Assembly: GCA_045593065.1 (NCBI GenBank) | Contig: JAZNVZ010000007.1 | Span: 12,071 to 76,070 of the forward strand | Direction of reading: 5' to 3' | DNA length: 64,000 nt | Origin: Candidatus Enterousia sp. | GTDB taxonomy: Bacteria > Pseudomonadota > Alphaproteobacteria > Rs-D84 | In this document: one piece after another, positions 2,758 to 18,395 of the stretch | Numbering within the stretch: the stretch's first letter is position 1 | Layout: the number at the start of each line of letters is the position of its first letter | Program-made: the position numbers and the translations under genes | Notes under the pieces: model-generated | Databases searched by the model: none | What the model was told of the DNA's origin: nothing | What the model saw: the letters and a program-made list of their open reading frames with translations, nothing else

Positions 2758-3180
2758 ATGCTGAGTGGTATAAAAATTTATTCCAGTGATTCTACTTGGC
2801 GCCAGATTTTGGCCGAATTGGGCGCAACGGTTGTTGATGCACCAAATGTTTTGGATATAAATTTTGATAAAATCGCGCCTGGTGCCCCTGTGTCAGCCAC
2901 AGAATTAAAAACATTGATTTTAGAATCTGGGGATGCCACAAATATTCTACATGCCGTGTTCGGCAATGACATTCCACAATTATCTGGTATTCAAACAAAT
3001 ATTATCATTTCATTGGTTCGCAGCGGCGGTATGACGGGCGCAGAATTAAACAAGGCATTGGGATATATGCCTGGGGTGGCAACACACACAATTACCACCG
3101 CGATATATGCGTTGCGTAAATTGTGTGGACATGATTTTATAACTCTGGACCGAGGGGTGTATAAAATTGGCTCTGTATAA
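2758..3180 (+). CDS. Winged-helix (OmpR-like C-terminal) DNA-binding protein
   Basis: C-terminal LGY....THTI.T.IY.LRK.......I....G.Y pattern; no SD, TGcTATCCT 6 nt upstream of ATG. Confidence 0.6.
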   Translation: MLSGIKIYSSDSTWRQILAELGATVVDAPNVLDINFDKIAPGAPVSATELKTLILESGDATNILHAVFGNDIPQLSGIQTNIIISLVRSGGMTGAELNKALGYMPGVATHTITTAIYALRKLCGHDFITLDRGVYKIGSV

Positions 3181-3832
3181 AGTATTTTCTTTTGATAAAA
3201 TCCCCAGTACCCAAACCATGGCCGCTGATATGATTGCATCGCATCGTGCCGGCGACCATTCTGTTATTGTTGCCGCCGCCCAGAGTGATGGCCGCGGACG
3301 CTTCCGCCGAAAATGGGTTTCTCATCATGGAAATTTATACGCCAGTTTTATTTATGCCGCACCTGAACGCGATGCGCGCCTGTCTTATGCGGTGGCGGTG
3401 GCGGTGGCAGACACATTAATTTCGTTGGGCATTATACCAACAATTAAATGGCCAAATGACATATTAGTTGATGGAAAAAAAATTTCTGGAATTTTGATTG
3501 AATATTTTGGCCGATTTGTTGTCGTTGGAATTGGAATCAACATATCTACAAATCCAACTGTCGAATCATATAAAACAACTAAAATGAATAATTATATAAA
3601 AACCAATGAACAAGAGGTATTGTCGCGTTTAATGAAGTTTTTAGACAAATGGATGCGCGCAGATTTTTCGGTTGTTCGTGCGCGTTGGATGTCTTTGGCC
3701 ACAGGATTAAATACAACAGTTAAATATCGCGGCGCAACCGCGGAATTGATTGGGATAAATGAAAATGGCGCATTGGTTTTGCGTTGTGGCACCCGATATG
3801 TTTTAGCATATGGCGATGAAATTGTGATATAA
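3167..3832 (+). CDS. birA: Biotin--protein ligase (group I, no HTH)
   Basis: STQ, Q..GRGR..RKW.S..GNLY, KWPND, KKISGILIE, GIGIN. Confidence 0.95.
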   Translation: MALYKVFSFDKIPSTQTMAADMIASHRAGDHSVIVAAAQSDGRGRFRRKWVSHHGNLYASFIYAAPERDARLSYAVAVAVADTLISLGIIPTIKWPNDILVDGKKISGILIEYFGRFVVVGIGINISTNPTVESYKTTKMNNYIKTNEQEVLSRLMKFLDKWMRADFSVVRARWMSLATGLNTTVKYRGATAELIGINENGALVLRCGTRYVLAYGDEIVI

Positions 3833-3837
3833 ATCTC

Positions 3838-3866
3838 TTGACTTGTGTTGCGATTTGTGATATAAT
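3838..3866 (+). promoter_or_regulatory. Near-consensus sigma70 promoter upstream of the phage-like cluster
   Basis: TTGACT-17 bp-TATAAT with extended -10 TG. Confidence 0.7.
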
Positions 3867-3892
3867 ACAAACCATCAAGAGCAGAAAAACTA

Positions 3893-3919
3893 CACGTCAT
3901 GATGACGTGATTTTTTTTT
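3893..3919 (+). terminator. Leader intrinsic terminator 1
   Basis: CACGTCA-TGA-TGACGTG followed by A and T9. Confidence 0.6.
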
Positions 3920-3932
3920 ACTTTTTTCAACT

Positions 3933-3958
3933 GGCGCACGATTTTGTGCGCTTTTTTT
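3933..3958 (+). terminator. Leader intrinsic terminator 2
   Basis: GCGCAC-GATTTT-GTGCGC followed by T7. Confidence 0.65.
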
Positions 3959-3985
3959 ATTTCTTACCACCAAGGGATACAAAAC

Positions 3986-4396
3986 ATGCAATTTAATTTG
4001 ATAAAACATCAAACCGGTTGGTCGCACGATGTTTATAAAATCGCCCATGTAATTTTTGCAGAAACATGCGCACAATCTCTGCGCGTGGTCGAAGCATTGG
4101 CATCGATGATTGCAAATGGCGCACGCGAATCACACCAAACAGAAATTGATTTCGTTATTAATTCTGGATTGTTTGAATCACTGGATAAAAAATCAAATCG
4201 GCATTATTTATTAAACACAAATGAAAATGCACGCGCGTTTCAAATGTGCCTGAGGGTGGTCGACAAAATGTTAAAACACAATTTGAACGATTCTTGTTTT
4301 GGCGCAACAAAATTCCACAGAACAGAATTTAATCCGTCTTGGTCAATCGCGCGCGGATATATTTTAGATATGGATGGATTGTTGTTCTATGCGTGA
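3986..4396 (+). CDS. Cell wall hydrolase (Hydrolase_2/SleB-like), divergent
   Basis: IA.VIFAE (catalytic Glu position), GATKFH, P.W and terminal LLFY; ATG 3986 after AAGGGA. Confidence 0.6.
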   Translation: MQFNLIKHQTGWSHDVYKIAHVIFAETCAQSLRVVEALASMIANGARESHQTEIDFVINSGLFESLDKKSNRHYLLNTNENARAFQMCLRVVDKMLKHNLNDSCFGATKFHRTEFNPSWSIARGYILDMDGLLFYA

Positions 4397-4414
4397 TAAA
4401 TAACGGATTTGAAA

Positions 4415-4657
4415 ATGAAAACACAAAAAATTATTCATGGCGGATATCTGGCTGGCCACAGAACATACATTTTATCAGGTGTTGGAATTTTATCAGCAAT
4501 CGCATCTTATTTGGTCGGCGATACAGATTTATTCATAACAATGCAATCAATATTTACTTTGGGTGGAATTTATTTCTTGCGCAAAGCAAACGATACAAAA
4601 AGGAGAAATTATGCAAAACATACCAGAAAAATTTCAAAACACAGACGGAACAGTTAA
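4415..4657 (+). CDS. Small membrane protein, holin-like
   Basis: About 80 aa, two hydrophobic segments after L.G.RTYI, basic C-terminal tail, adjacent to the hydrolase. Confidence 0.45.
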   Translation: MKTQKIIHGGYLAGHRTYILSGVGILSAIASYLVGDTDLFITMQSIFTLGGIYFLRKANDTKRRNYAKHTRKISKHRRNS

Positions 4658-5267
4658 TGTTGATGCGTTGATGAAATCTTATATGGAATTGGAAAAGAAA
4701 ATGGGCAGCATGATATCAGTGCCCACAAACACTGCGGATAAAAATGCACGCGAAAAATTTAATCGCGCGATTGGTGTGCCAGAAAACGCAAATGATTATC
4801 CATCAAATGATTTGTTTGATGACGAATCGGTTCGACAAAAATTTCATGACATAGGATTAACATCTGGTCAGGTTGAACAAATTTATTCTATTGCAGAAGA
4901 ATTTTTATCACCTGTACTTGCAGAATTATTTTCCAGTAAAAATGAAAATACCGAAATGTTAAAATTAGAAAAATTTTTTGGTTCGCGTGAAAAAATGACA
5001 GACGCATTAAATGCAATAAATACATTCGGTGAAAAATTTTTACCACATGATGCATTTGAATCATTATGCGCCAGCGCCAGCGGAATTCAAGGCGTGTATC
5101 AAATGATGCAATCGTTTGAACCGCATGTAAACACAACCAGCGACATAACAGAAAATTTAACCGATGCGGATTTGCGCCGCATGATGCGCGATCCAAAATA
5201 TTGGCGTGATAACGATCCAGAATATGTTCGCAAAATAGAAAATGGTTTTAAAAAATTATATGCTTGA
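4611..5267 (+). CDS. Capsid scaffolding/assembly protein (T7 gp9/BPP-1-like)
   Basis: IPEKF...G.VNVDAL.KSY.ELEKK N-terminus and MMRDPKYW...DP.YV.K...F..LY C-terminus; SD AGGAG. Confidence 0.8.
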   Translation: MQNIPEKFQNTDGTVNVDALMKSYMELEKKMGSMISVPTNTADKNAREKFNRAIGVPENANDYPSNDLFDDESVRQKFHDIGLTSGQVEQIYSIAEEFLSPVLAELFSSKNENTEMLKLEKFFGSREKMTDALNAINTFGEKFLPHDAFESLCASASGIQGVYQMMQSFEPHVNTTSDITENLTDADLRRMMRDPKYWRDNDPEYVRKIENGFKKLYA

Positions 5268-5372
5268 ATAAAATTTTTTTACTTTTTTCTTTACTATCAT
5301 TTTCTTTTATTATAAAATGTTATCAAGAACAAAAAAAGTTTGTTCTATCCAAAACACAAAAAGGAGAGAAGA

Positions 5373-5633
5373 ATGGCATTTTTATTCTCAGCAAAAAAAG
5401 CTGCAAAACCTGCTGCTAAACCTGCTGCAAAAAAAGTTGCTGCTAAACCAGCTGCAAAAAAACCGGCTGCAAAAAAACCAGCTGCTAAGAAAGTTGCTGC
5501 AAAAAAACCAGTCGCTAAAAAAGTAGTTGCAAAAAAACCAGCTGCTAAAAAAGTAGTTGCTAAAAAACCAGCTGCTAAAAAAGTTGCTGCTAAAAAACCA
5601 GCTGCTAAAAAATGCGCATGCAAAAAGAAATAA
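5373..5633 (+). CDS. Histone H1-like Lys/Ala/Pro-rich DNA-binding protein
   Basis: 86 aa made of PAAKK/VAAKK pentapeptide repeats; SD AAGGAG. Confidence 0.8.
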   Translation: MAFLFSAKKAAKPAAKPAAKKVAAKPAAKKPAAKKPAAKKVAAKKPVAKKVVAKKPAAKKVVAKKPAAKKVAAKKPAAKKCACKKK

Positions 5634-5656
5634 TTATTTCTGGACTGCAAAGATTT

Positions 5657-5682
5657 AACCCGCGAAAATTCGCGGGTTTTTC
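5657..5682 (+). terminator. Intrinsic terminator after the H1-like gene
   Basis: AACCCGCGAA-AA-TTCGCGGGTT plus T tract. Confidence 0.8.
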
Positions 5683-5817
5683 TTTACAATAATTTTAACC
5701 AGATAGTTTGTTGTCTGGTTAAAACTGTTGCAGGAAAATCTTATTTTGGACCCCGCATTTTGTTATATGACGCAATATTTATTGCATAATCAAAAAACAA
5801 AATATCAGTATATGGTC

Positions 5818-5844
5818 GGCGCAATTCGTTGCGTCTGTTTTTTT
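5818..5844 (+). terminator. Terminator-like hairpin immediately upstream of the capsid gene
   Basis: GGCGCAA-TTCG-TTGCGTC then TGTTTTTTT. Confidence 0.55.
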
Positions 5845-5865
5845 ATTTTAACAAAAGGAAAAATC

Positions 5866-6690
5866 ATGTCTGTTTCCATAGATCAAGTATTTGTGAAACA
5901 ATTTGAAGCAGATGTTCATTTGGCATATCAACAAATGGGCACAAAATTACGTTCCACTGTGCGCAGCAAATCTGGCGTTGTGGGACAATCTACAACATTT
6001 CAAACAATCGGGCGCGGCACAGCCAGCACGAAATCTCGGCACGGCATTGTTCCTGTTATGAATTTGAATCATCAACCCGTAGAATGCGTATTGCAAGATT
6101 ATTATGCTGGTGATTGGGTTGATGCATTGGATGAATTAAAAATCAATGTCGATGAACGCCGCGTGGTCGCATCTGCGGGCGCATACGCGTTGGGGCGCAA
6201 AACAGATGAATTAATTATATCTGCAATGGACAACGCCACTGCATACGCCGGTGATTTTACCACAGGTTTAACAAAAGCCCTGATTTTAGATGCCGTGGAA
6301 AAATTAAATGAAAAAGATGTCCCAGATGATGGTCGCAGATTTGCGGTTGTCGGCGTGCATCAATGGAACGAATTGTTAAATATTAATGAATTTGTGTCCG
6401 CAGATTATGTTGGCGATTCTAATCCGTTGGTTAACGGATACGAAGCCAAAAAATGGTTGGGCATAACATGGGTGTTGCATAATGATTTGCCGTTGGCCAG
6501 TTCTACTAACCGCAGTTGCTTTATCTATCACGCATCCAGCATCGGTCATGCGTGTGGACAAGAAGTCAAAACTGATATTACATGGCACGGCGAACGCGCG
6601 GCACACTTTATCAGCAACAGTATGTCTCAGGGTGCCGTATTAATCGACCAAGACGGCATAGTTCGTATCAAATGCAAAGATAACGCATAA
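5866..6690 (+). CDS. Major capsid protein, podovirus-type
   Basis: MS.SID..FVKQF...VH.A.QQ.G.KLR.TV, A.ALGRK.D..II and terminal GAV.ID..G.V motifs; SD AAAGGA; 274 aa. Confidence 0.88.
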   Translation: MSVSIDQVFVKQFEADVHLAYQQMGTKLRSTVRSKSGVVGQSTTFQTIGRGTASTKSRHGIVPVMNLNHQPVECVLQDYYAGDWVDALDELKINVDERRVVASAGAYALGRKTDELIISAMDNATAYAGDFTTGLTKALILDAVEKLNEKDVPDDGRRFAVVGVHQWNELLNINEFVSADYVGDSNPLVNGYEAKKWLGITWVLHNDLPLASSTNRSCFIYHASSIGHACGQEVKTDITWHGERAAHFISNSMSQGAVLIDQDGIVRIKCKDNA

Positions 6691-6721
6691 AAAATATTAC
6701 ACAACCAAAAGGAAACCTACG

Positions 6722-6952
6722 ATGGCATTTCAAAATAAAAATTTGTCTGTAATTGCATACGCAAATGGTTTTACTTTGTGGCATTATGCTGCAAATGAAA
6801 CAATGGCAACAATTTCCGAAAGTGGATATTTTAATAATGTTTTAACACTGATGAACACTGGCGATATTATTATTATCAACGCTTCTAATGGCACCGCCAT
6901 CAAAGCAATTACTGTGTCCAGCAGTGCTGTAACAGTAGCCGCATTATCATAA
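6722..6952 (+). CDS. Small phage-cluster protein (possible head decoration)
   Basis: LSV.AYANGFTLWHY...GYF.......GD.I; lies directly after the capsid gene. Confidence 0.5.
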   Translation: MAFQNKNLSVIAYANGFTLWHYAANETMATISESGYFNNVLTLMNTGDIIIINASNGTAIKAITVSSSAVTVAALS

Positions 6953-6970
6953 TTAAAGACATTTAAACAT

Positions 6971-7002
6971 GTGGGGTGATTCTGTGCACCCCACTTTATT
7001 TT
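6971..7002 (+). terminator. Intrinsic terminator after the capsid/decoration genes
   Basis: GTGGGGTG-ATTCTGTG-CACCCCAC plus TTTATTTT. Confidence 0.7.
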
Positions 7003-7024
7003 ATATAAACCAAAGGATATATAC

Positions 7025-7543
7025 ATGCCGAGTAAAATAGATTTGTGTTCTATGGCGTTATTAAAATTGGGCGAAAAACCCATTACTGATTTAAATAACG
7101 ACAGCGCATCTGCACAACTGGCCAATACATTATATGACACAACATTGGATGCGTTATTGTCTGCTTATCCATGGCGTTTTGCCACACAACACATTATTAT
7201 AGAAAAAAACCAAGATGGTGAATTTATCGTTCCAAAAAATGTATTACGCATATTACGATGTTCTGGGCGCGTATACGGAAATAAAATCGTATCAAATGAA
7301 AACAATGCAAAATTAGTCGCGGTTATGCGTATACCTGTTGAAGAATACCCCAGTTATTTCATATCATTGGCCGCCACAAAATTAGCAATGGAATTTTGTA
7401 TACCGTTAACCGGAAATCAACAGACACTGAGAATTTTAATCAGTTTATACGAATCCGAATTTCAAAATGCTAAATTTATAGATTCTACAACAAGTGCAAA
7501 TTCCAGCATAGAACAATTTTCTTTGATAAACGCACGTTTCTAA
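7025..7543 (+). CDS. Tail tubular protein A / adaptor (T7 gp11-like)
   Basis: IDLC..AL..LG..PI......S..A......YD...D.LL...PW.FA. Confidence 0.8.
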   Translation: MPSKIDLCSMALLKLGEKPITDLNNDSASAQLANTLYDTTLDALLSAYPWRFATQHIIIEKNQDGEFIVPKNVLRILRCSGRVYGNKIVSNENNAKLVAVMRIPVEEYPSYFISLAATKLAMEFCIPLTGNQQTLRILISLYESEFQNAKFIDSTTSANSSIEQFSLINARF

Positions 7544-7567
7544 TTTGAATACAAAAAGGTACAAATA

Positions 7568-9280
7568 ATGACAGAATTTATACATACACAAAATTCATTC
7601 GCAAACGGAGAAATTGCGCCCGAATTTTACCTGAACAAAAATATTAACGGGTTATCAAAATTAGAAAACATAGATGTTATGGATGGCGGCGGATTAACGC
7701 GCCGGCCAGGATTAGTTGATATTGCAACATTGACGGGGCCCGCCAGAATTTTTTCTTTTGATTTGTCTGACCAAGAACATTTCATTGTGGTGTTGACCAA
7801 TTATGCGTTAACAATTTATTCTAACAATTCTGCGATTTTTAATTGTATTGCACCATGGCCCACCGATGCAATGGGACAAATACAATTCGCAGCACGTGGC
7901 GATTCTATGATTTTTGTGCATCCCGATGTCAGTCCGTATGTGCTGGTTAAAACTAAAAACTCTTTCGCATTGAATAAATTTAGTTTTTATGACACAACTG
8001 GGACTATCCCGCAACAGCCCATGATGACATACGATGATATGAATGGTATTTCAATCAATGTATCTGGTGGGCCGTATGGTGTTAAATCTGCGACATTTAC
8101 AACAAATGCAGATTATTGGTCTGCAACAAATGTAGAAACAATTATTAAATTTAATGATCAAACCTGGAAAATTATCGAATTCGTTAGTAAAACTGTGGTC
8201 TATGCCGTCAGCACAACAGAATATACATTGCCGAACGCCCCAATCACTAGTTGGACTGAAAGCGCATTTGATAATCGTCATGGATGGCCTTGTGCAATTA
8301 CATTCCACCAAGATAGATTGATATTCGGTGGAACACATTATGTTCCTGGCGGAATTTGGATGTCGCGTGTTGGCGCACACAATAATTTTGATGTCGGTAC
8401 TGGATTAGATGACGAAGCGATTATTACAACATTATTATCCAAAGAACGTCAACAAATATGCAGTTTAATCAGCAGCGATACATTACAAGTTTTAACATCT
8501 TGTGGTGAATGGGCGATTGCAAATAAACCAATTACACCCGCCAGTATGAATATTATGCAACATACATCTGTCGGCAGCGCAACCGCACATTGTTTAATCC
8601 CCCAAAAAATCGAGGGCGAAACAGTGTTTGTATCTAATACCATGACAGAAATTAGAAAACTGTCGTTGGATACATTGGGCGAAAAGTACAATGCAGACGA
8701 TTTGTGTGCTTTTTCCAAACACTTGATAAATCAACCTGTGGATATCGCATATAATAAAGCATTAAAAAAATTGTATTTGGTAAACAATGATGGAACCATG
8801 GCGGTATTAAAACAAAACAGTGTTTTAGGAATTTCTGCGTGGGCAAAGTATTTAACATACGGAAAATTCACATCTGTGGCCGTCAGTGCCAATGAAACAT
8901 TTGTCGTATTAAAAATAAACAATATATACAAATTATCAAAATTTTCTGACGCAGCCACCAATGATTCAGGAACCTATAACATAGATTTTTGCGTATCTGG
9001 GGTGCCATTAAGTTTTTCTGGACACAGACCTGCGCATCTAAAAATACACAAAATCAATTTGCGTTTATTTGAAACAAAAAGTGTGTTTATAAACAATATG
9101 CGCGTGTCGTTACCAAATGAAATTTATTCCCCCGCCAGTCCCGGATTTTCAGGAGATATCACAATGAATATGCTGGGGTCGCAAATAGACACCGCAACAT
9201 CGCCATGGACAATCCACGGCAATGACCCGATGCCAATCACAGTGTTTTCTGTATCACTATATGGACAATATGAAATTTAA
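7568..9280 (+). CDS. Tail tubular protein B / nozzle (T7 gp12-like)
   Basis: Q.SF..GEI.P, GG..RRPG, GWP..ITFHQDRL.FGG, W.SR.G...NF..GT..DD. Confidence 0.82.
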   Translation: MTEFIHTQNSFANGEIAPEFYLNKNINGLSKLENIDVMDGGGLTRRPGLVDIATLTGPARIFSFDLSDQEHFIVVLTNYALTIYSNNSAIFNCIAPWPTDAMGQIQFAARGDSMIFVHPDVSPYVLVKTKNSFALNKFSFYDTTGTIPQQPMMTYDDMNGISINVSGGPYGVKSATFTTNADYWSATNVETIIKFNDQTWKIIEFVSKTVVYAVSTTEYTLPNAPITSWTESAFDNRHGWPCAITFHQDRLIFGGTHYVPGGIWMSRVGAHNNFDVGTGLDDEAIITTLLSKERQQICSLISSDTLQVLTSCGEWAIANKPITPASMNIMQHTSVGSATAHCLIPQKIEGETVFVSNTMTEIRKLSLDTLGEKYNADDLCAFSKHLINQPVDIAYNKALKKLYLVNNDGTMAVLKQNSVLGISAWAKYLTYGKFTSVAVSANETFVVLKINNIYKLSKFSDAATNDSGTYNIDFCVSGVPLSFSGHRPAHLKIHKINLRLFETKSVFINNMRVSLPNEIYSPASPGFSGDITMNMLGSQIDTATSPWTIHGNDPMPITVFSVSLYGQYEI

Positions 9281-9304
9281 CAATATAAACCAAAGGAGGT
9301 ATTT

Positions 9305-9652
9305 ATGGGACAATTAGTATCAGATGTAACAAATGTATTGAATGCACAAAATTCAAAACGTGCAGCAAATAATAAACGGCAAGAAATTTTACAACAAATT
9401 GCCAAAGATGAACAAACAAAAACCAACCTGATAAAAAAAGCATTGGCCACACAACGGGCAAATTATGGCGCAGGCGGCACAAATTCCGCCAGCACCAGTG
9501 CCGGCGCAGTATTACAGCGTCTGCGCAATGAAACCGCCGCCCCATATGACGATAAAAAAGAGCAAAATATCAAAAAAATTAAAAACATTACTGTGAAAAA
9601 AAATAATTTGTTAAAGAATTTACTGGCCAGATTAGACAATATCGTTGGATAA
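9305..9652 (+). CDS. Putative internal virion/ejection protein
   Basis: Gln/Ala-rich helical protein with ALA.QRA.YGA.G.....S motif, located after the nozzle gene. Confidence 0.5.
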   Translation: MGQLVSDVTNVLNAQNSKRAANNKRQEILQQIAKDEQTKTNLIKKALATQRANYGAGGTNSASTSAGAVLQRLRNETAAPYDDKKEQNIKKIKNITVKKNNLLKNLLARLDNIVG

Positions 9653-9655
9653 AAA

Positions 9656-10258
9656 ATGATTACGCAAATACACCAATTTGCAAATGATTGGAATCGTATT
9701 TTGGGGTACAACACGCCACGCCATCACCAAGATATGCTGGATTTTTTATACAATGTATGGCAATCACCGCCCCATCGCGGATTATTAATGGCTTTTCGGC
9801 ATTCAGGTAAATCTACCGTTGTTGGTATTTTTGCCGCATGTGTTTTATATTTACGGCCTGAAACACGAATACTGGTATTATCTGCACACACGACATTGGC
9901 TGCACGAATGGTTGCACATATAAAAAACATTTTGGAAAACCACCCAATGTGTTGCGATTTAATTCCTAAATCAAAAAAAGAATGGGCTGGCGATAAAATA
10001 ACAATCAACAGACCTATTGGTATTCGCGAACCGTCTGTGATATGTCAAGGAATCCACGGAAACATTACAGGAATGCGCGCAGATTTAATAATTTGTGATG
10101 ATGTCGAGGTTCCTAATACCGCAAACACACCACAAAAACGCGCCGCATTACGAGAAAGATTGCGCGAATTAGATTTTATCTTGTCGCCATCTGGCACAAT
10201 TATATATATCGGCACCCCACACGCCGTGGACACAATATACAGAACCCAAGAAGATTGA
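9656..10258 (+). CDS. Large terminase, N-terminal ATPase domain only
   Basis: Walker A AFRHSGKST, G.ITG.RAD, Walker B LIICDDVE, coupling motif YIGTPH; stops nine residues after GTPH. Confidence 0.88.
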   Translation: MITQIHQFANDWNRILGYNTPRHHQDMLDFLYNVWQSPPHRGLLMAFRHSGKSTVVGIFAACVLYLRPETRILVLSAHTTLAARMVAHIKNILENHPMCCDLIPKSKKEWAGDKITINRPIGIREPSVICQGIHGNITGMRADLIICDDVEVPNTANTPQKRAALRERLRELDFILSPSGTIIYIGTPHAVDTIYRTQED

Positions 10259-10260
10259 TT

Positions 10261-10917
10261 TTATTCTGCGTTATCAGGATGAGATTTTTGCTTGATGAGT
10301 GTACGCAATTTGGTTAACAACTGATTCCCAGCATCCGCGAACATCGGCAAAAATGTTTCATATTCTGGCATATCGGCTTGAATCTGTGCCAGGACGCGTT
10401 CGGTTAATGGTTTATTAATAATTTGACTGGCCGTGTCCCACACATGATATGCGCGCCATGTTTGCATAACAATACGCCATTTTGCCAACATATCTGGATA
10501 ATCAGTCAACATTGTTTTGATTCCAACCAACCATTCATCGCCAAATTTTTTTATAACATCCAATTTTTGCAGTTTTTGCAAACCTTGTTGATTGGGGGTG
10601 AATTCACGCAATGCGTTTCGTAATTGCGTCCATTGTTTGTCCGTCAATGGTGTTGTCATCGCAGATTCTGTCATTAATCCGCCATACGGCAACAAATTTC
10701 GGTCGATTGAATTCATCGGGGTTTTTCCACTGCGCAAATTCAAAATATGTTGAACCAAGAGTTTTCCTGTGGGCAATTCCGCCATTTTATCCAGGACATC
10801 ATCGGTTGCCTCGTTAACAAATATTGGGTTTAATGCCGCCCAACCGCCCAGAATTACGTGTTCTTGACGATACAGGTTTACCAATTTTTGTGCAACTAAA
10901 TTTGCTTTTGGTTTCAT
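10261..10917 (-). CDS. Hypothetical protein
   Basis: 218-aa ORF with SD GGAGAG, downstream of the XRE gene in the same orientation. Confidence 0.75.
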   Translation of the reverse strand: MKPKANLVAQKLVNLYRQEHVILGGWAALNPIFVNEATDDVLDKMAELPTGKLLVQHILNLRSGKTPMNSIDRNLLPYGGLMTESAMTTPLTDKQWTQLRNALREFTPNQQGLQKLQKLDVIKKFGDEWLVGIKTMLTDYPDMLAKWRIVMQTWRAYHVWDTASQIINKPLTERVLAQIQADMPEYETFLPMFADAGNQLLTKLRTLIKQKSHPDNAE

Positions 10918-10938
10918 ATTCTCTCTCCGTTAATAATA

Positions 10939-11946
10939 TTATTCGGTTAGAATTAAAACGACACGATGCATGGTTTTTGCATAAATTTTTTCCTGGGGGT
11001 TAAGAATCGCGCCATACAAATTACCCTTGGCATCAGCGCGCACAGTCGCAATTTGTGCACTGACAACATCGTCTGGGTTTAAAGATGAAAAATCAGCATC
11101 CAGACACAATGCCAAATCGCCCACCCCAGCAGGTTGAGACGCATCAACAAAAACATACGATTTTTCAGGAATAAAACCGCCCGTACGTTTTGAAACAGGC
11201 ATAACCGCATAAATTGATTTGCGCCCTTCAAGTGATGCAGGTGCCACAATCATAATTTTATCGTTTTTCTTGAATGCGATTGCACCACCATTTTGTGTAC
11301 CAAACACAGGCACCAATTTTCTGCGCGCACTGTCATACAATTTGGCACCGTATACACCATCGTGCATATCAATACCAGATACAGGACTGTCCGGAACCAA
11401 TACAGATTTCACGCGTTCTTTGACCTTGTTGATTTGTGTATTTAATTCGCCAGATTTATATAATGTCGCAATTTTGTCGAACATTTTTTCCGCCGTCATC
11501 GCAAAAGATTTGGCCAATGGCGCAACCTCGTTCTGGTAAATTTCACGTTGACCGATTTCTATTTTATGGTATACGGACAATGTCATTCCGGCATCCTTGG
11601 CCGCTTGGGCGATTGTTTTGCCCTGTAATTGGCGGATTTTGCGCAACCCAGAACCGAACACCTTTAACCCACCATGTTCGTTGTCATTCAGGCGGCGTTT
11701 AATTTCGCTTTGCCATTTGTCGGCAACCGCATCAGATTCCTTGATGAATATATCAGATAATTTGCAACCTAAAATATTGCAAATATTCAATAATTGTTTT
11801 TGGTTCAAACGGCGAACGCCCTTTTCGATTTTGGACACCGCAGATAAACTGAGTCCTGTTTTACGGGCCAATTCGGTCATTTTCATACCGTTGTTCAAAC
11901 GAATTGTTCTAATGTTATTAGGAAATATGATTTCTTCTTGCGCCAT
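10939..11946 (-). CDS. Tandem XRE/HTH transcriptional regulator with possible degenerate S24-like C-terminal domain
   Basis: Two HTH_3 units (IRTIR...ELARKTGLSLSAVSKIEKG; LRKIR...AAKDAGMTLSVYHKIEIG); LVPVFG...YAV C-terminal beta region; SD AAGGAG. Confidence 0.8.
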   Translation of the reverse strand: MAQEEIIFPNNIRTIRLNNGMKMTELARKTGLSLSAVSKIEKGVRRLNQKQLLNICNILGCKLSDIFIKESDAVADKWQSEIKRRLNDNEHGGLKVFGSGLRKIRQLQGKTIAQAAKDAGMTLSVYHKIEIGQREIYQNEVAPLAKSFAMTAEKMFDKIATLYKSGELNTQINKVKERVKSVLVPDSPVSGIDMHDGVYGAKLYDSARRKLVPVFGTQNGGAIAFKKNDKIMIVAPASLEGRKSIYAVMPVSKRTGGFIPEKSYVFVDASQPAGVGDLALCLDADFSSLNPDDVVSAQIATVRADAKGNLYGAILNPQEKIYAKTMHRVVLILTE

Positions 11947-12027
11947 TTATTCAACTCCTTGCAGGTACTTGACAAAAGTTTAGTCAATTTTTGAATAATT
12001 GGCAAGTAAAAATTTGTCAAAAAATAA

Positions 12028-13596
12028 TTATACAGGCATATCGTCAGGTATTGCAGATATATCAACACCAGTTTCTGGGGCCCCAACAGGATGTGATTCC
12101 ATGGGTTGTGCCACCCCACCAAATTCACCAGGCAACGGCGCATCTGCACGATTTGCCGCGTCATCCAGATTATCAAACAGGCAATAATCATTTAAAAACG
12201 CCAAATGGACAGTTTCTGGACGGCCATGACGATTTTTACCAATAATAACATCGGCCTTGCCACGCGCGCGTTCCAAACGTTTTTGCCATGTTTCAACACT
12301 GGTTTGTGAAACGGTATTAGACATACGTTGCGATGGGTTGCGATCGTTCAAATAATATTCTTCGCGATATGTGAACATGACAATATCGGCATCTTGTTCA
12401 ATAGACCCTGATTCACGCAAATCCGCCAACTGGGGGCGTTTGTCATCACGCATTTCAACACTGCGCGATAATTGAGACAACGCAATAACCGGCACATCCA
12501 ATTCTTTGGCCAACATTTTTAATCCGCGGGTAATTTCAGACAATTCTTGCACACGATTGTCATTGCGTTTCCCGCCAGGCGACATCATTAATTGCAAATA
12601 ATCGATAACAATCAATGCAATGCCACCATATTTCCGTGCCAACCGGCGTGCGCGCGTACGAATCATCGGTACAGACATGCCCGCAGTGTCGTCAATTACC
12701 AATGGTGCTTGAGAAATCGCCTTGGCGTATTGGGTCATTTTCAGGAAATCTTCGTCCGACAAACTTTTGCCTTCGCGCATATATGTCGCAGGTATTTTTG
12801 TTTGTGATGATAAAATACGCGTTGCCAGTTGCGACACAGACATTTCTAGTGAAAAAAATGCAACGACACCACGATAACGTTTGTTTGCCCGACCTGATAA
12901 AATAGCATTTGCTGCGTTAAATGCGATATTCATCGCCAATGTTGTTTTACCCATCGCAGGACGGCCAGCAATAATTATCAAATCAGAATGATGTAAACCG
13001 CTGAGTGATTTATCCAACGCCGTCAACCCAGTTGTCAACCCAGACAATGAACCATCTGCCTGGTATGCGATTTGCACTTCTTCCAGTGCACTCTGTAATG
13101 CGTTGGCAATGGGTGTTGGTTCGTGTTCCGCAACCCCGGTTGATGCCATATCAAACAATTTCTGTTCGGCGATTTCCAGTTGCCGTGCCACAGGTTTATC
13201 CAGGTTTTCGACATACGCATCATCAACAATCGATTGCCCCAATGCAATTAATTGTCGGCGCATGGCGTTTTCATAAACGATTCGCCCATATTGTTCAACA
13301 TTTACAACCGTTGCGCCAGCCGCAGATAATTCTGTCAAATAATCAATACCGCCAACCGAATCAAGGATGCCCTGCTGTTGCAGATAATCTTTGACAGTAA
13401 TGATGTCAAACGGCACGCCAGATGCAAACCGATGCAATGCCAGTTTATAAATTTCTTGATGGGCCGGATGCGAAAAATGTTCCGGTTTTAGAAAATCCGA
13501 TACCTGTTCCAAGGCGCGATTACTCATCAACGCGGCAGCCAGAACGGCTTGTTCGGCTTCTAGATTCATTGGTAAAGTTTTGGGAGTAAAGTCCAT
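12028..13596 (-). CDS. dnaB: Replicative DNA helicase
   Basis: P.N.EAEQ, AGRPAMGKT, FFSLEMS, IDYLQL, LSQLSR, DLRESGSIEQDAD, KNRHG; full length, alphaproteobacterial type. Confidence 0.97.
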   Translation of the reverse strand: MDFTPKTLPMNLEAEQAVLAAALMSNRALEQVSDFLKPEHFSHPAHQEIYKLALHRFASGVPFDIITVKDYLQQQGILDSVGGIDYLTELSAAGATVVNVEQYGRIVYENAMRRQLIALGQSIVDDAYVENLDKPVARQLEIAEQKLFDMASTGVAEHEPTPIANALQSALEEVQIAYQADGSLSGLTTGLTALDKSLSGLHHSDLIIIAGRPAMGKTTLAMNIAFNAANAILSGRANKRYRGVVAFFSLEMSVSQLATRILSSQTKIPATYMREGKSLSDEDFLKMTQYAKAISQAPLVIDDTAGMSVPMIRTRARRLARKYGGIALIVIDYLQLMMSPGGKRNDNRVQELSEITRGLKMLAKELDVPVIALSQLSRSVEMRDDKRPQLADLRESGSIEQDADIVMFTYREEYYLNDRNPSQRMSNTVSQTSVETWQKRLERARGKADVIIGKNRHGRPETVHLAFLNDYCLFDNLDDAANRADAPLPGEFGGVAQPMESHPVGAPETGVDISAIPDDMPV

Positions 13597-14443
13597 GTCA
13601 ATTATAGTAAATCAAAAAATTCATTTTTCAACGCCTTTTTTAACTGGATACGAAAAATTTGTTTTGCCAATCCAAAAACCAGACGGAACCGCCGTTTGGC
13701 CAGAAATGTTTCCACCAGATAAAATCGCAGATATGCGCGCATCAGTCGGCGAACACCACTTTATGGCGCAAATGATGTTGGAATTCACACCAATGGAGCG
13801 TGTGCGTTTAGACCCAGGAATGATTAAATTTTACAACGCAGAATTTAATCCACACACAGCAAAAATCAACGATTGGTCCGTTACAGGCGCATCTGTGTAT
13901 TGGGACCCATCGTTGGGACATAAAAATACAGATGCCAGTGTGTGCGCACTGGTTTTTCGTGATGATAAATTACACAACATATTTTTGCATGACATAATCT
14001 ATATGACTGTGCCACGCGAACACCCGCAACCATTAACATACCAATGTGATGTAGTGTTAGATTTTTTGAACAAATACAAATTGCACAGATTATCAGTCGA
14101 AACAAATGGATTAGGAAACGCATTGCCAGAAATACTGGGCGATAAAATCGCAAAACTGGGCGGTGGCATTGTTGTCCAGCGCATTACGAATAACACAAAA
14201 AAAGAATCGCGAATCATGGGCGCATTAGAACCACTGTTGGGCTCTGGCCGAATATTTGCACACGAACGCATAAAACAAACCCCATTCTTGGCAGAAATGA
14301 TTGGTTGGTCGCCTATTGGTGGCATCGGTCATGACGATGGATTGGATGCAGTCAGTGGCGCAATAAACACAATTCCTGTGCCAATTCGACCATTGGGTAC
14401 AACCGTTCGCCCAATTTCAGCAAACACAAATTTCATAATATAA
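13595..14443 (+). CDS. Large terminase, C-terminal RNase H-like nuclease domain
   Basis: WPE.F, F.AQMML, YWDPSLG, D.SV, VETNG.G, K..RI, HDDGLDAV; own SD GGGAG at 13582-13586. Confidence 0.85.
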   Translation: MSIIVNQKIHFSTPFLTGYEKFVLPIQKPDGTAVWPEMFPPDKIADMRASVGEHHFMAQMMLEFTPMERVRLDPGMIKFYNAEFNPHTAKINDWSVTGASVYWDPSLGHKNTDASVCALVFRDDKLHNIFLHDIIYMTVPREHPQPLTYQCDVVLDFLNKYKLHRLSVETNGLGNALPEILGDKIAKLGGGIVVQRITNNTKKESRIMGALEPLLGSGRIFAHERIKQTPFLAEMIGWSPIGGIGHDDGLDAVSGAINTIPVPIRPLGTTVRPISANTNFII

Positions 14444-14459
14444 CCAAAGGAGATAATTT

Positions 14460-15683
14460 ATGAACATCAAAAAAATACAACAAATGTATAACAACGCATT
14501 AAAAATACGCGAACCATGGATGCAAAAATGGGACGATGCACGCAGATATACTATCCCCACAACAAACACAGAATCTGCTACTTTGTTTGATGGTACGGCG
14601 GCTGATGCAGTTGATAATTTAGCTGCATCAATTTATACATTATTAACACCACCTGAATCATTATGGATAAACCTGGTGCGCGAAAGCGACATGTCCCCAA
14701 ATCCAGATATCGCAACCGCGGTACTGCGTGCAAATTTGAATGATTCTAATTTTTATACCACCGTGCATCAAGCGTATCTGGATTTGTGTATATACGGCAC
14801 TGCGTGTTTGTTCATGGCTGAAAACCCGATTGGTGCAGATTCTGCGTTTTCATTTACTGCAATTCCGTTAACAGATATTGCAATATTGAATAACGCAATA
14901 TTCCACACAACAACCATGACCGCAACCGAAGTCGTTGGCGCATATCCAACATGGACACCAACCCCAGATGTGCGCAAAAAAATGCAGGCAGACCCGAATA
15001 CACCACTGCGTTTGGTTCAAGCATTGATTGGTTTAGATTTTGTCGCATGGTTGGATGTGGGGGGCGATATCGAAAACAATATTGTTGCAACCGGTACATT
15101 TGAAACAAACCCGTATTTAATATTCCGTTGGTCATTAATCAGCGGCGAATTATATGGACGCAGTCCGGTGTTGCGCGCCCTGCCCGATATAAAAACCGCA
15201 AACAAAGTCGTGGAATTGGTTTTGAAAAACGCAACTATCGCGGTCAGTGGTATTTGGCAAGCAGATGATGATGGCGTAATAAATCTGCAAAATATAAATT
15301 TAACCCCAGGCGCAATTATCCCAAAGGCCGTGGGCAGTTCTGGGTTAACACCCTTGTCCAGTGGCGCAAATTTTGATGTATCGCAACTGATACTGAATGA
15401 TTTGCGCGACAGAATTCGCCATACATTGTTGGCAGACAGATTGACCATGATTGCAGAACGCGATATGACCGCGACCGAGGTTTTGGCACGCAATGCCGAT
15501 ATGATGCGCGTATTGGGCGCAACATACGGACGATTGTTGCATGAATTTATACGGCCACTGTGCGAACGCGGTTTACAAATCTTGTCGCGCCGCGGTGTCA
15601 TAGAACCCATATCACTGCACAGCGATGCAGAATTAAAATATCTGGCACCAATCGCCACAGCAACCAAAGAAACTGTTTTATAA
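14460..15683 (+). CDS. Portal / head-tail connector (T7 gp8/BPP-1 Bbp21-like)
   Basis: LFD.TA..A...LAA.....LTPP...W, P....RW....GE.YGRSP...ALPDIK, MTATEV..R; SD AAGGAG; 407 aa. Confidence 0.9.
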   Translation: MNIKKIQQMYNNALKIREPWMQKWDDARRYTIPTTNTESATLFDGTAADAVDNLAASIYTLLTPPESLWINLVRESDMSPNPDIATAVLRANLNDSNFYTTVHQAYLDLCIYGTACLFMAENPIGADSAFSFTAIPLTDIAILNNAIFHTTTMTATEVVGAYPTWTPTPDVRKKMQADPNTPLRLVQALIGLDFVAWLDVGGDIENNIVATGTFETNPYLIFRWSLISGELYGRSPVLRALPDIKTANKVVELVLKNATIAVSGIWQADDDGVINLQNINLTPGAIIPKAVGSSGLTPLSSGANFDVSQLILNDLRDRIRHTLLADRLTMIAERDMTATEVLARNADMMRVLGATYGRLLHEFIRPLCERGLQILSRRGVIEPISLHSDAELKYLAPIATATKETVL

Positions 15684-15697
15684 AAAAGGATACCAAC

Positions 15698-15895
15698 ATG
15701 CAAGAAATCGAAAAACAATATGCACGCGCATTTCAAACACCCGCAGGACGCGCCGTATTGCAACATTTACGACATATAACGATTGAACGAGTATTGGGGC
15801 CAAATGCAACAGATAACGAATTAAGATGGGCTGAATCTGGGCGCGCCATGGTTCGTCAAATTGAATCAATGATTGCGCGCGGAACAAAAGGGTAA
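15698..15895 (+). CDS. Bbp19-like small phage protein
   Basis: Y.R.F.TP.G..VL.HL...EG.R..V..I-like pattern directly after the portal; SD AAAGGA. Confidence 0.7.
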   Translation: MQEIEKQYARAFQTPAGRAVLQHLRHITIERVLGPNATDNELRWAESGRAMVRQIESMIARGTKG

Positions 15896-15900
15896 TAAAA

Positions 15901-16158
15901 ATGCCAAAGAAACAAAACATAACAAATATAATAGATACATTACGCACAGGGTGGGTATTATTGGCGGCGGTGTTCGGTATAGTATATTGGATTGCCCGCC
16001 AAGATTCATCTCTCACTGAATTAGAACGCGCAGAAACACGCATTACCGCATTAGAAAACCGGACAACAATACTGGAAAGCGGTATTGGACAATTACAAAT
16101 GAAAATTGACGGAATCAAAGAAGATGTAACATTGATAAAATCCGCGGTGATTAAATAA
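15901..16158 (+). CDS. Membrane-anchored coiled-coil protein (XhlA/holin-like)
   Basis: One transmembrane segment followed by a heptad region RITALE....LE. Confidence 0.5.
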   Translation: MPKKQNITNIIDTLRTGWVLLAAVFGIVYWIARQDSSLTELERAETRITALENRTTILESGIGQLQMKIDGIKEDVTLIKSAVIK

Positions 16159-16174
16159 TCATTCAACGATAATT

Positions 16175-16345
16175 CCGCCACAGTTCGTATAGCCGTCATA
16201 CCGCCGTAGTTCGTATATCGTCATACCGCGGACGCGCGGTATCCAGTCCGCCATAGGCGGACTTGTGTAATAAGTGAGCAAGTTTGCTTCGCAAACTGGA
16301 TTCCGGCATGCGCCGGAATGACGATTATGTGGGCGGGGTGACGAT
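16175..16345. repeat. Distal copy of CGTC-tagged palindromic repeat module
   Basis: Near-identical to 25227-25387 (CGTCATACCGCGG.CGCGCGGTATCCAG ... CTGGATTCCGGCATGCGCCGGAATGACG). Confidence 0.9.
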
Positions 16346-16394
16346 TTTGCGCCAACTGTCCCCTCTTTGGCGGATACAGCAAGAATAATATATC

Positions 16395-16421
16395 AAAAAA
16401 ACGGGCGTTTGCCCGTTTTTT
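16395..16421. terminator. Bidirectional intrinsic terminator
   Basis: AAAAAAACGGGC-GTTT-GCCCGTTTTTT. Confidence 0.8.
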
Positions 16422-17351: not shown

Positions 17352-17435
17352 TTCTTTTTCTCTTTTCTCTTTTTTTTATTTTAACAAATAAACTATTTTG
17401 ATTCAAGAGCCGATTTGTGATAAAATAAAAATATA

Positions 17436-18395
17436 ATGACTAATATCGTTCTGGATTCTTTGTTAAAACCTTTGGCGGAATTTTATACGCCGTCTTTTGT
17501 CGAAGAAATCGCAATAAATCACGCCGGCCAGGTGTGGATGCGTCTGCACGGCGCACGCGTCCCGTGGGTCGCGTACGAGGCACCACAATTAACCAAACAA
17601 TACTTGGTGGATTTAATTCATACGGTCGCAAATATTTATGAACAACCGTTTGACCCGTATCATGGTGTGCCGGTCGTTTATGCTACATTGCCCGGAAACC
17701 ACCGGTTTTCCGCCATCGCGGGACCAAATGTACAATATGACGATAATGATTTAACCGGCGGTGTCGCAATGAGTATTCGCGGCGGCGGTGCCACAGATGT
17801 CAGTTTCAAAAACTATCACTTGGAACAAGGTAAACAATTATTAAAAATTAAACCGCGCGACAAAGTTCGACCTGATGACCCGTATGAACGATTGATGAGT
17901 GCAATTAATGACGCCAGTCCTATTTTAATTTCTGGCGCAACCGCAACTGGAAAAACAACATTTTTGAACCATATGTTGACTCTTATCGATAAAAACGCGC
18001 GTGTAATTACGGTCGAAGATGCACGCGAAATCCATGTAGAACAGCCAAATCGTGTGCATTTTATATTGTCCAGAACAGAACAAAATAACGATTTTTCTTA
18101 TGCTCGATTGCTGGATTTGGTTGTGCGTATGACACCAGATGTTATTATCGGCGGCGAAATTTCAACCAGCAACGCATCAATTTTATGGGAAATGCTGGGG
18201 ACAGGACACGACCATTTTTATACCACAATTCACGCAGAATCAGCCGAGGCCGCGTATGCCGCATTTGCTGACCGCATTTTGCATACACAACCTGCGTACG
18301 ACCGATCTGATTTAATCGCAGAAATGAAAAAGAAAATCCGCGTTGTACAATTATCGCGCGATGGTGGATTACGCGCCGTAACCGAGGTCGTATAA
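17436..18395 (+). CDS. VirB11/CpaF-like secretion ATPase
   Basis: EEIAIN, Walker A GATATGKTT, TVEDARE, RMTPD.II.GE, TGH...TTIHA. Confidence 0.85.
   Translation: MTNIVLDSLLKPLAEFYTPSFVEEIAINHAGQVWMRLHGARVPWVAYEAPQLTKQYLVDLIHTVANIYEQPFDPYHGVPVVYATLPGNHRFSAIAGPNVQYDDNDLTGGVAMSIRGGGATDVSFKNYHLEQGKQLLKIKPRDKVRPDDPYERLMSAINDASPILISGATATGKTTFLNHMLTLIDKNARVITVEDAREIHVEQPNRVHFILSRTEQNNDFSYARLLDLVVRMTPDVIIGGEISTSNASILWEMLGTGHDHFYTTIHAESAEAAYAAFADRILHTQPAYDRSDLIAEMKKKIRVVQLSRDGGLRAVTEVV

Follow-up and report, generated by a model that had tools for sequence, protein, structure and literature searches.

To our knowledge, only a handful of independent gene transfer agent (GTA) lineages are known, two of them in Alphaproteobacteria. 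DNA uptake in the RcGTA system relies on ComEC and DprA. For the alphaproteobacterial BaGTA of Bartonella (Bartogtaviriformidae), the available portion of PMC9662315 reports short-tailed particles, a main cluster of ~14 kb, co-evolution with the host, and Sulfitobacter phages nested within the BaGTA large terminase subunits (TerL). FpGTA of Faecalibacterium prausnitzii is described in the available portion of PMC12946183 as a gut GTA-like element that is probably podovirus-like, spread over more than one locus, and equipped with lysis genes. Here, we analyze a 64,000-nucleotide stretch (the window; positions 12071–76070 of contig 7) of the genome of Candidatus Enterousia, which the available portion of PMC12306168 places in the GTDB order Rs-D84 as a gut and rumen alphaproteobacterium. 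The genome comprises 849,724 bp on seven contigs and is 96.8% complete. A T7-type gene module lies on the + strand at 3838–16421 (window positions here and below, unless a contig is named), between birA and a terminator at 16396–16421. With a probability of about 0.72, we read this module as what remains of a T7-type, pelagiphage-like podovirus, now owned by the host, inherited vertically, and reduced to building, filling, and releasing a short-tailed particle, and thus as a GTA-like “viriform.”

The module is a nearly constant, single-copy part of its order. The capsid protein found matches in 38 of 41 relatives (the source genome counted) from six families whose genomes all measure 0.5–1.1 Mb, and a capsid profile matched 295 of 328 Rs-D84 genomes, 211 of the 224 that were ≥90% complete, and, by genus, 28 of 30. 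Within Enterousia, gene order was identical in 9/9 other loci compared and in further loci, with birA flanking the module and dnaB lying within the terminase gene. We also surveyed 80 further Enterousia loci for intact open reading frames (ORFs), counted per locus with a match. Frames were intact for capsid (79/80), p76 (80/80), adaptor (80/80), nozzle (78/80), p115 (78/78), terL_N (76/77), terL_C (70/70), portal (66/70), and scaffold (62/65), and the shortfalls mostly reflected contig edges, including both nozzle cases and all three scaffold cases. The holin-like and Bbp19-like genes were left out of these counts owing to query-boundary artefacts; the hydrolase frame was intact in 61 of 62 Enterousia loci. 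Five near-complete genomes of the family that had no capsid match also had no terL_N or portal match, so loss appears to be all-or-none.

Selection on the module resembles that on housekeeping genes. By the NG86 method, comparing the window's genes with those of four relatives, the ratio of non-synonymous to synonymous divergence (dN/dS) was 0.025–0.047 for capsid, 0.04–0.09 for terL_N, 0.065–0.078 for portal, and 0.12–0.18 for terL_C, and did not exceed 0.26 for any other module gene. The host genes dnaB and birA gave 0.05–0.075 and 0.09–0.12, respectively. Module genes are therefore under purifying selection at ratios comparable to those of dnaB and birA. Median identity to the window was 84% for capsid, 76% for portal, 74.5% for DnaB, and 67% for BirA.

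The module has also diverged together with its host. Across 21 genomes from six families, we compared a tree of concatenated capsid, portal, nozzle, adaptor, terL_N, terL_C, and scaffold proteins with a tree of the unlinked rpoB. Both had the same deep topology, f4 | f1 | ((f5,f6),(f2,f3)), where f1 to f6 are the families, and every family was monophyletic in each. The internal topology of f3 was identical in the two trees, and the groups (window,G020) and (G001,(G007,G002)) were recovered in both. Vertical inheritance, co-divergence with the host, and purifying selection, the marks of a GTA, were all found. A preliminary description of this DNA had proposed vertical inheritance and pointed to synteny, tree agreement, dN/dS below 1, and rates of pseudogenization as the evidence to look for. 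All four came out in its favor: the arrangement is fixed in the genus and the module present order-wide, its tree is congruent with that of rpoB, every gene has a dN/dS well under 1, and almost no pseudogenes occur in the 80 loci.

The chromosomal setting leaves little room for a mobile element. As the preliminary description stated, the module starts right after birA (3167–3832) and has dnaB interleaved with it. A host block on the − strand at 10261–13596, inside the terminase gene, comprises p218 (10261–10917), an XRE regulator with two helix-turn-helix domains (10939–11946), and dnaB (12028–13596), which is the sole dnaB match in the genome. The location of this block did not vary among the Enterousia loci examined. 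Essential replication and division genes sit inside the module in different lineages. In other Rs-D84 families, ftsZ and an AmiC-like amidase gene (AMIN plus Amidase_3) are interleaved with the module (L019:11139–12821, L021:3419–4939, and L021:5532–6707).

The same description had seen neither an integrase nor a duplicated attachment (att) site, which also stands. There is no integrase at the locus, as the genome's only two tyrosine recombinases lie on other contigs (C5 and C2), and no flanking att-like repeats were found, the best direct repeats being 18–21 nt at 83–90% identity in AT-rich DNA. Replication genes were likewise not found in the module. When the ORFs of the pelagiphage Hodr, the nearest cultured phage, were searched against the whole genome, they matched only module genes and one unrelated locus, and the Hodr core proteins of 783 and 1247 aa had no counterpart anywhere in the Enterousia genome. 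As in a GTA, the locus therefore gathers phage-derived genes for structure, packaging, and lysis in the chromosome but none for integration or autonomous replication. It lacks the core and ejection proteins, replication and early genes, integrase, and single TerL of a functional T7-like or HTVC010P-like podovirus. This evidence excludes an active prophage.

The terminase departs furthest from the expected arrangement. The preliminary description had counted one terminase gene, but TerL is encoded by two ORFs, cut cleanly within the ATPase domain. The N-terminal piece, terL_N (9656–10258, +), holds the ATPase core with Walker A, Walker B, and C-motif and matches NF033889 positions 4–191 of 500 (2e-67); it aligns with residues 32–215 of the solved T7-type TerL 8dgc. 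The second piece, terL_C (13580–14443, +; start at TTG 13580 or ATG 13595), holds the rest of the ATPase domain and an RNase H-like nuclease and matches NF033889 positions 230–500 and PF22530; against PDB sequences it had no match at 0.01. From the coverage of NF033889 by both ORFs and the 8dgc alignment, the cut can be placed within the ATPase domain, past the C-motif, and nothing is missing. In 20/20 relatives, terL_N is a separate ORF of ~200 aa (171–214), and it stops 2–6 residues past a conserved DTIY motif, with one exception that has a 19-residue tail. The split is common to all six Rs-D84 families sampled and is ancestral in the order. The halves are adjacent in families f2, f4, and f5, with 175–575 bp between them, and are separated by portal and ftsZ in f3 and by the dnaB block in f1.

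NF033889-type terminases are one polypeptide with ATPase and nuclease domains; here, both pieces have kept all catalytic residues. Walker A, Walker B, and C-motif were invariant across 21 terL_N sequences, as were the nuclease acidic residues D109, E174, D252, D253, and D256 across 19 terL_C sequences. We propose that the two pieces act as a pair. The predicted terL_N–terL_C complex scored 0.81 against 0.01 for the best control, passing a mark that 58 of 80 solved complexes attain, compared with 2 of 110 mismatched pairs. The model runs had at least 88% of their contacts in common, the predicted local distance difference test (pLDDT) value of the partner was at least 77, and terL_C residues 19–31 were modeled to pair with terL_N strand 41–47. 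However, because T7-type TerL has been solved (8dgc, 4bij), this result may come only from resemblance to a known fold and need not indicate binding. Three ways of rejoining the halves were considered and rejected. For an intron, tRNAs were the sole Rfam matches at gathering thresholds, both in the window and in six loci that included some with adjacent halves. For an intein, terL_N matches terminase to its last residues and so leaves no space. For excision, the longest repeat common to both junctions is 8 nt. A small terminase was not detected either: the ~100-aa gene that precedes TerL in outgroups (phrog_31793) had no match in the Enterousia genome or 20 Rs-D84 loci at E 0.01.

The same module occurs outside Rs-D84. 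In a sample of 149 other alphaproteobacterial families, represented by one genome each at ≥90% completeness, the capsid profile matched 38 families at E ≤ 1e-8 (28 of them strongly, at 285–482 bits), the terL_N profile matched 25, and capsid and T7-type TerL occurred together in 23. All 12 out-of-order loci that were fetched, from genomes of 1.1–6.5 Mb, carried the same module. Host genes lie on its flanks. TerL was a single ORF of 487–501 aa in the three loci whose ORFs were listed, and TerL frames measured 399–937 aa outside the order, mostly 493–626 aa, vs. 201–202 aa in two Rs-D84 genomes. In these outgroups, an endolysin and a holin-like gene lie 3′ of TerL, and portal and scaffold are often away from capsid, by 4.7–20 kb in four genomes and 70–90 kb in one. 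In the last of these, a 6.5-Mb alphaproteobacterium (G375), the portal match comes in two pieces 17 kb apart (C2:1262494–1263357 and 1280209–1280631), either another split gene, perhaps, or a copy that has been disrupted.

Trees of the module and of rpoB from 12 Rs-D84 and 11 outside genomes both set Rs-D84 apart from the rest. Both also showed a ladder of G422, G423, and then the remainder, together with the groups (G375,G361,G403), (G358,G402), and G413 with G335, and no well-supported conflict between them was found. This class-wide part comes from a small sample of genomes. Tentatively, and at somewhat less than an even chance, the module could be one branch of a third, unrecognized T7-type GTA family in Alphaproteobacteria. 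This family would have been domesticated before Rs-D84 split from several other orders and vertically inherited since, in about one-sixth of the families sampled (the 23 of 149 with capsid and T7-type TerL); in Rs-D84, its terminase would have two subunits, with dnaB between the halves in Enterousia and an operon gated by antitermination.

The remaining genes complete a short-tailed particle. On the + strand, their order is hydrolase, holin-like, scaffold, H1-like, capsid, p76, adaptor, nozzle, p115, terL_N, terL_C, portal, Bbp19-like, and p85. According to the ORF list and family matches, the head–tail genes named in the preliminary description are all present and open, whereas its “ejection-like” label did not survive. 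The set is co-oriented, as it said, but not contiguous, since the − strand host block interrupts it. Ribosome-binding sites were correctly described as mostly good, with AAGGA-type sequences 5′ of most genes. Its placement among short-tailed, T7-like systems rather than the siphoviral RcGTA type was also borne out, as family scans gave T7-type genes only, with none of the siphovirus-type tail genes (tape measure, tail tube), prohead protease, or P22-like TerL of RcGTA.

The T7-type scaffolding protein (4563–5267, +) matched PF05396 at 9.4e-10, and the major capsid protein (5866–6690, +) matched PF19821 at 6e-74; its true start is M47 of an ORF opening at 5728. The portal (14460–15683, +) matched PF12236 at 7e-81 and is followed by a Bbp19-like gene (15698–15895, +; PF25181, 5e-8), which adjoins portal also in phage Hodr and in the outgroups. 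A small conserved virion-module protein, p76 (6722–6952, +), matched phrog_18004 at 5.6e-14. Between scaffold and capsid lies a Lys/Ala-repeat gene resembling histone H1/Hc2 (5340–5633, +), built of 15-nt tandem repeats. The claim of an H1-like gene within the module holds in position, with a Lys/Arg-rich ORF there in 10/10 Enterousia loci examined and two f3 loci, but its PF07382 match (7e-8) is below the family cut-off.

The tail is represented by a T7 gp11-like adaptor (7025–7543, +; phrog_394, 2.3e-33) and a T7 gp12-like nozzle (7568–9280, +; phrog_376, 4.4e-78). The post-nozzle protein p115 (9305–9652, +), the gene formerly labeled ejection-like, is conserved order-wide and in outgroups, had no family match, and showed no detectable homology to anything named. 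We rejected p115 as a gp14-like ejection protein because hhalign against the phage positional equivalent gave a probability of 2%. Candidate lysis genes open the module: an endolysin-like hydrolase (3986–4396, +) with a weak match to phrog_938 (1.1e-6), whose orthologue in an outgroup locus (L142:14581–15150) matches the same family at 8e-18, and a holin-like small membrane protein (4409–4657, +) with hydrophobic segments and a basic C-terminal tail. The latter had no match in family scans, including PHROG, and is kept throughout Rs-D84. At the other end, p85 (15901–16158, +) has, by sequence features, an N-terminal membrane helix and a coiled coil, and is possibly lysis-related. Beside the module, a 140-aa ORF without family match (2758–3180) overlaps the start of birA, which was itself identified by family match. 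This ORF and birA are conserved beside the module in all Enterousia loci, the dN/dS of the ORF is 0.16–0.23, and its C-terminal half looks winged-helix-like, as judged by eye.

Fibres are encoded elsewhere. No tail fibre gene occurs within the module locus of the Enterousia genome, but the preliminary description had suggested a genome-wide search for fibre and small terminase genes, of which the first was found. A 287-aa fibre gene at C2:14485–15348 (locus L135:9485–10348), is set among polysaccharide/glycosyltransferase-type genes. Its product combines an N-terminal T7-fibre domain with a coiled coil, and its C-terminus shows a weak Gp53-like match. The particle genes therefore occupy at least two contigs. 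Fibre-like matches with differing C-termini number 1–4 per Enterousia genome and occurred in 23 of 24 genus members sampled, and many relatives carry a fibre stub of ~180–240 aa between p115 and terL_N. The fibre-like genes of close relatives have other locations again; in G013, a fibre-tip-domain gene follows p85.

The leader region suggests how the operon may be controlled. Directly after birA lies the best promoter match in the region, a strong sigma-70-type sequence (3838–3866, +; TTGACT-17-TATAAT with an upstream TG, 11/12 matches). Ahead of the first gene, it is followed by two tandem intrinsic terminators, each a hairpin with a T-run (3893–3909 and 3933–3952, +). Further terminators follow the H1-like gene (5657–5678, +) and p76 (6971–6994, +), and the terminator that ends the module after p85 has an 11-bp stem (+). 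Among 65 distinct Enterousia birA–hydrolase spacers, the promoter pattern was matched in 51, and two leader terminators were present in 52, one in 10, three in 1, and none in 2. Hairpins were counted per sequence since the MAFFT alignment was out of register for pair counting. The stem sequences vary between species while pairing is kept. In other Rs-D84 families, one or two terminators lie just upstream of the operon in 8/8 loci scanned, with the promoter pattern in 5/8.

Judged from this pattern, the promoter and tandem terminators resemble an antitermination-gated late operon. Features that may relate to host control of production are this conserved leader and the XRE regulator beside dnaB. 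A 21-nt motif (CGATTTGTGATAWAATA...) at 3851–3871 overlaps the −10 region of the module promoter. A copy of it that is 90% identical lies at 17411–17431, shortly before the gene for a VirB11-like ATPase (17436–18395), and the motif could be a shared operator or merely a similar promoter.

Taken as a GTA-like system, the module could work as follows. The operon would be silent by default, with its strong promoter at 3838 firing into the two tandem terminators, so that expression would need read-through (antitermination), presumably in a few cells. Scaffold, capsid, and portal would build a procapsid, and the terminase pieces, an ATPase core and a lid-plus-nuclease piece, would join by strand complementation. 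Because no small terminase was detected, heads would probably be filled with cellular DNA non-specifically. The adaptor, the nozzle, and the fibre from the other contig would complete the tail, and the hydrolase and holin-like protein would lyse the producer. As there are no gp15/gp16-type ejection proteins, DNA would reach the recipient periplasm only, from where ComEC and DprA could take it up, as in RcGTA. Both genes are present in this 850-kb genome, and by analogy, their retention is weakly compatible with such an uptake route. On these sequence grounds, a functional domesticated particle system is probable, whereas gene transfer as its role falls just short of even odds.

The closest phages share the structural plan of the module but differ in much else. 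Pelagibacter podophages (EXVC031P Hodr and the HTVC010P type) and the IMG/VR contig L217 resemble it, with the order portal–Bbp19–scaffold–capsid–p76–adaptor–nozzle. The module capsid is 43% identical to that of Hodr and 62% to that of L217. By contrast, the phages have large internal core proteins, long fibres, early genes, and another type of terminase, and the module terL pieces had no match in Hodr at 1e-3. The nearest cultured phages reach at best 43% identity in capsid, 33% in portal, and ≤34% in TerL. The true phage-type contigs in IMG/VR, L217 and L232, have capsids 56–62% and portals 32–34% identical, core proteins of 748 and 1036 aa, and no T7-type terL match.

Many other IMG/VR “viral” contigs of 4–15 kb are this host module. 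Among L163–L216, dozens of “viral genomes” of 4–13 kb with 67–92% capsid identity begin or end at the module capsid gene. Four longer entries examined, at 62–78% identity (L210, L226, L233, and L234), are of the cellular type by gene content, with L210 including birA and dnaB. The IMG/VR entries thus seem to result from a host-owned cluster being called as provirus. A human-faecal scaffold (L114; GenBank MT838907.1, 5,084 bp, “UNVERIFIED Bacteriophage sp.”) shows the order portal–scaffold–capsid–p76–adaptor–nozzle, with identities of 63.5% for capsid and 42.7% for portal, and is too short to tell phage from cellular module copy.

Several other explanations have to be set against the GTA-like reading. 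The particle could be domesticated for a role other than gene transfer, as a PBSX-like killer, a device used against or on a partner organism on which these metabolically dependent bacteria probably rely, or a means of releasing DNA and nutrients to kin. We consider this unlikely, yet it draws on the same conservation, intactness, selection, and co-divergence, and it would fit the absence of ejection proteins and of a detected small terminase, the diversifying fibre tips, and an order described as probably partner-dependent (PMC12306168, available portion). The sequence evidence cannot tell gene transfer from other particle uses, and nothing in it separates the two. However, the packaging motor has been kept complete, its catalytic residues invariant, which is an argument for the packaged DNA being important. 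It is much less likely that the structural genes are kept as anti-phage protection, by assembly interference or as a decoy, without forming a particle of their own. Related phages exist, and domesticated phage genes that act in defence are known in general. Still, protection would not need the whole set intact (lysis, scaffold, portal, both terminase pieces, nozzle, and fibres), nor would it predict all-or-none loss.

Slow decay of a defective prophage into a functionless remnant might be suspected from the missing replication, integration, and core genes, the split terminase, and the minority of lineages that lost the module. It is virtually excluded by frames that are open in nearly all 80 loci, by dN/dS values as low as those of housekeeping genes with capsid better conserved than DnaB (84% vs. 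74.5% median identity), by retention across six families of gene-shedding genomes below 1.1 Mb, and by loss that is all-or-none rather than piecemeal. An active temperate phage or satellite moving between hosts, such as a capsid-forming phage-inducible chromosomal island (PICI), has next to no probability. The many short IMG/VR contigs that carry the module and the real phages with 56–62% identical capsids (L217 and L232) could be taken to favor it. Yet the short contigs examined (L210, L226, L233, and L234) hold the cellular-type module, cultured phages are distant in all three proteins compared, and the module tree tracks rpoB. The module keeps one chromosomal position, next to birA and around the only dnaB detected, and neither an integrase nor att repeats were found at the locus; both facts argue the same way. 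Capsid-forming PICIs carry an integrase, a replication module, and their own capsid and packaging genes but, as commonly defined, no tail genes, whereas the Enterousia system has adaptor, nozzle, and fibre.

Other observations weigh against the GTA-like reading itself. Particle formation and carriage of host DNA are predictions from gene content. Either the cut within the ATPase domain or the failure to find a small terminase could just as well point to impaired packaging, the genes being retained for some other use. Antitermination is read from a sequence pattern, and the promoter with its terminators might instead belong to a small RNA gene, while ComEC and DprA are common genes whose presence proves no link to the module. 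Shallow within-genus placements differ between the module and rpoB trees, both of which were built by a “quick” method, and long branches, such as G027 (long in both), are unreliable. The dN/dS values are rough because dS was near saturation (0.6–2.5), although this would, if anything, inflate the ratios. Capsid had no match in 33 of the 328 order genomes, including 13 of 224 of high quality, and the system is therefore dispensable.

If the GTA-like reading is true, a T7-type lineage in genomes below 1 Mb would show that such a particle pays for itself despite extreme gene loss, and it would offer a route of gene exchange to uncultured, partner-dependent gut bacteria. A two-polypeptide terminase, cut in the ATPase domain and kept over the history of the order, is also a natural experiment on packaging-motor assembly. 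The class-wide copies with unsplit terminase probably include cultivable, free-living species. Moreover, virus-prediction catalogues that list the host module among viral contigs inflate the provirus counts of gut Alphaproteobacteria.

Compared with described systems, the module most resembles RcGTA/CcGTA (Rhodogtaviriformidae) in its organization and history, though known here from its genes. Both are structural-only, phage-derived clusters in the same bacterial class, vertically inherited under purifying selection, with extra loci elsewhere (here, the fibre) and producer lysis. By family content, however, RcGTA has a different ancestor: the module has a T7-type scaffold, a PF12236 portal, an adaptor, a nozzle, and an NF033889 TerL, with no tape measure or long tail, a split terminase, and no small terminase found. 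BaGTA, compared by its description, is similar in bacterial class, reported short-tailed particles, a ~14-kb main cluster, and co-evolution with its host, but is described as Bartonella-restricted, unlike the module (PMC9662315, available portion). As an indirect indication, Sulfitobacter phages of the BaGTA TerL clade were not in the top 20 of 2782 phage matches of an outgroup TerL.

We found no published description of this module in the literature on Enterousia, Rs-D84, podovirus- or T7-like GTAs, and split terminases, main texts being covered. The available portion of PMC12306168 mentions neither phage, capsid, prophage, terminase, nor gene transfer, and the available main-text portions of PMC12946183 and bioRxiv 10.64898/2026.07.08.737213 do not mention Enterousia. 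FpGTA, likened here by description, comes from a member of Firmicutes, and there is direct evidence that it packages host DNA, whereas the Enterousia module is known from genes (PMC12946183, available portion). The preliminary description had missed this podovirus-like, GTA-like element in print, together with the terminase split and the spread of the module beyond its lineage. With FpGTA published, the kind is already known, and the Enterousia module would therefore be an independent lineage with unusual features. New here are the order-wide age of the terminase split, the class-wide distribution of the module with an unsplit terminase, and the promoter–terminator gate.

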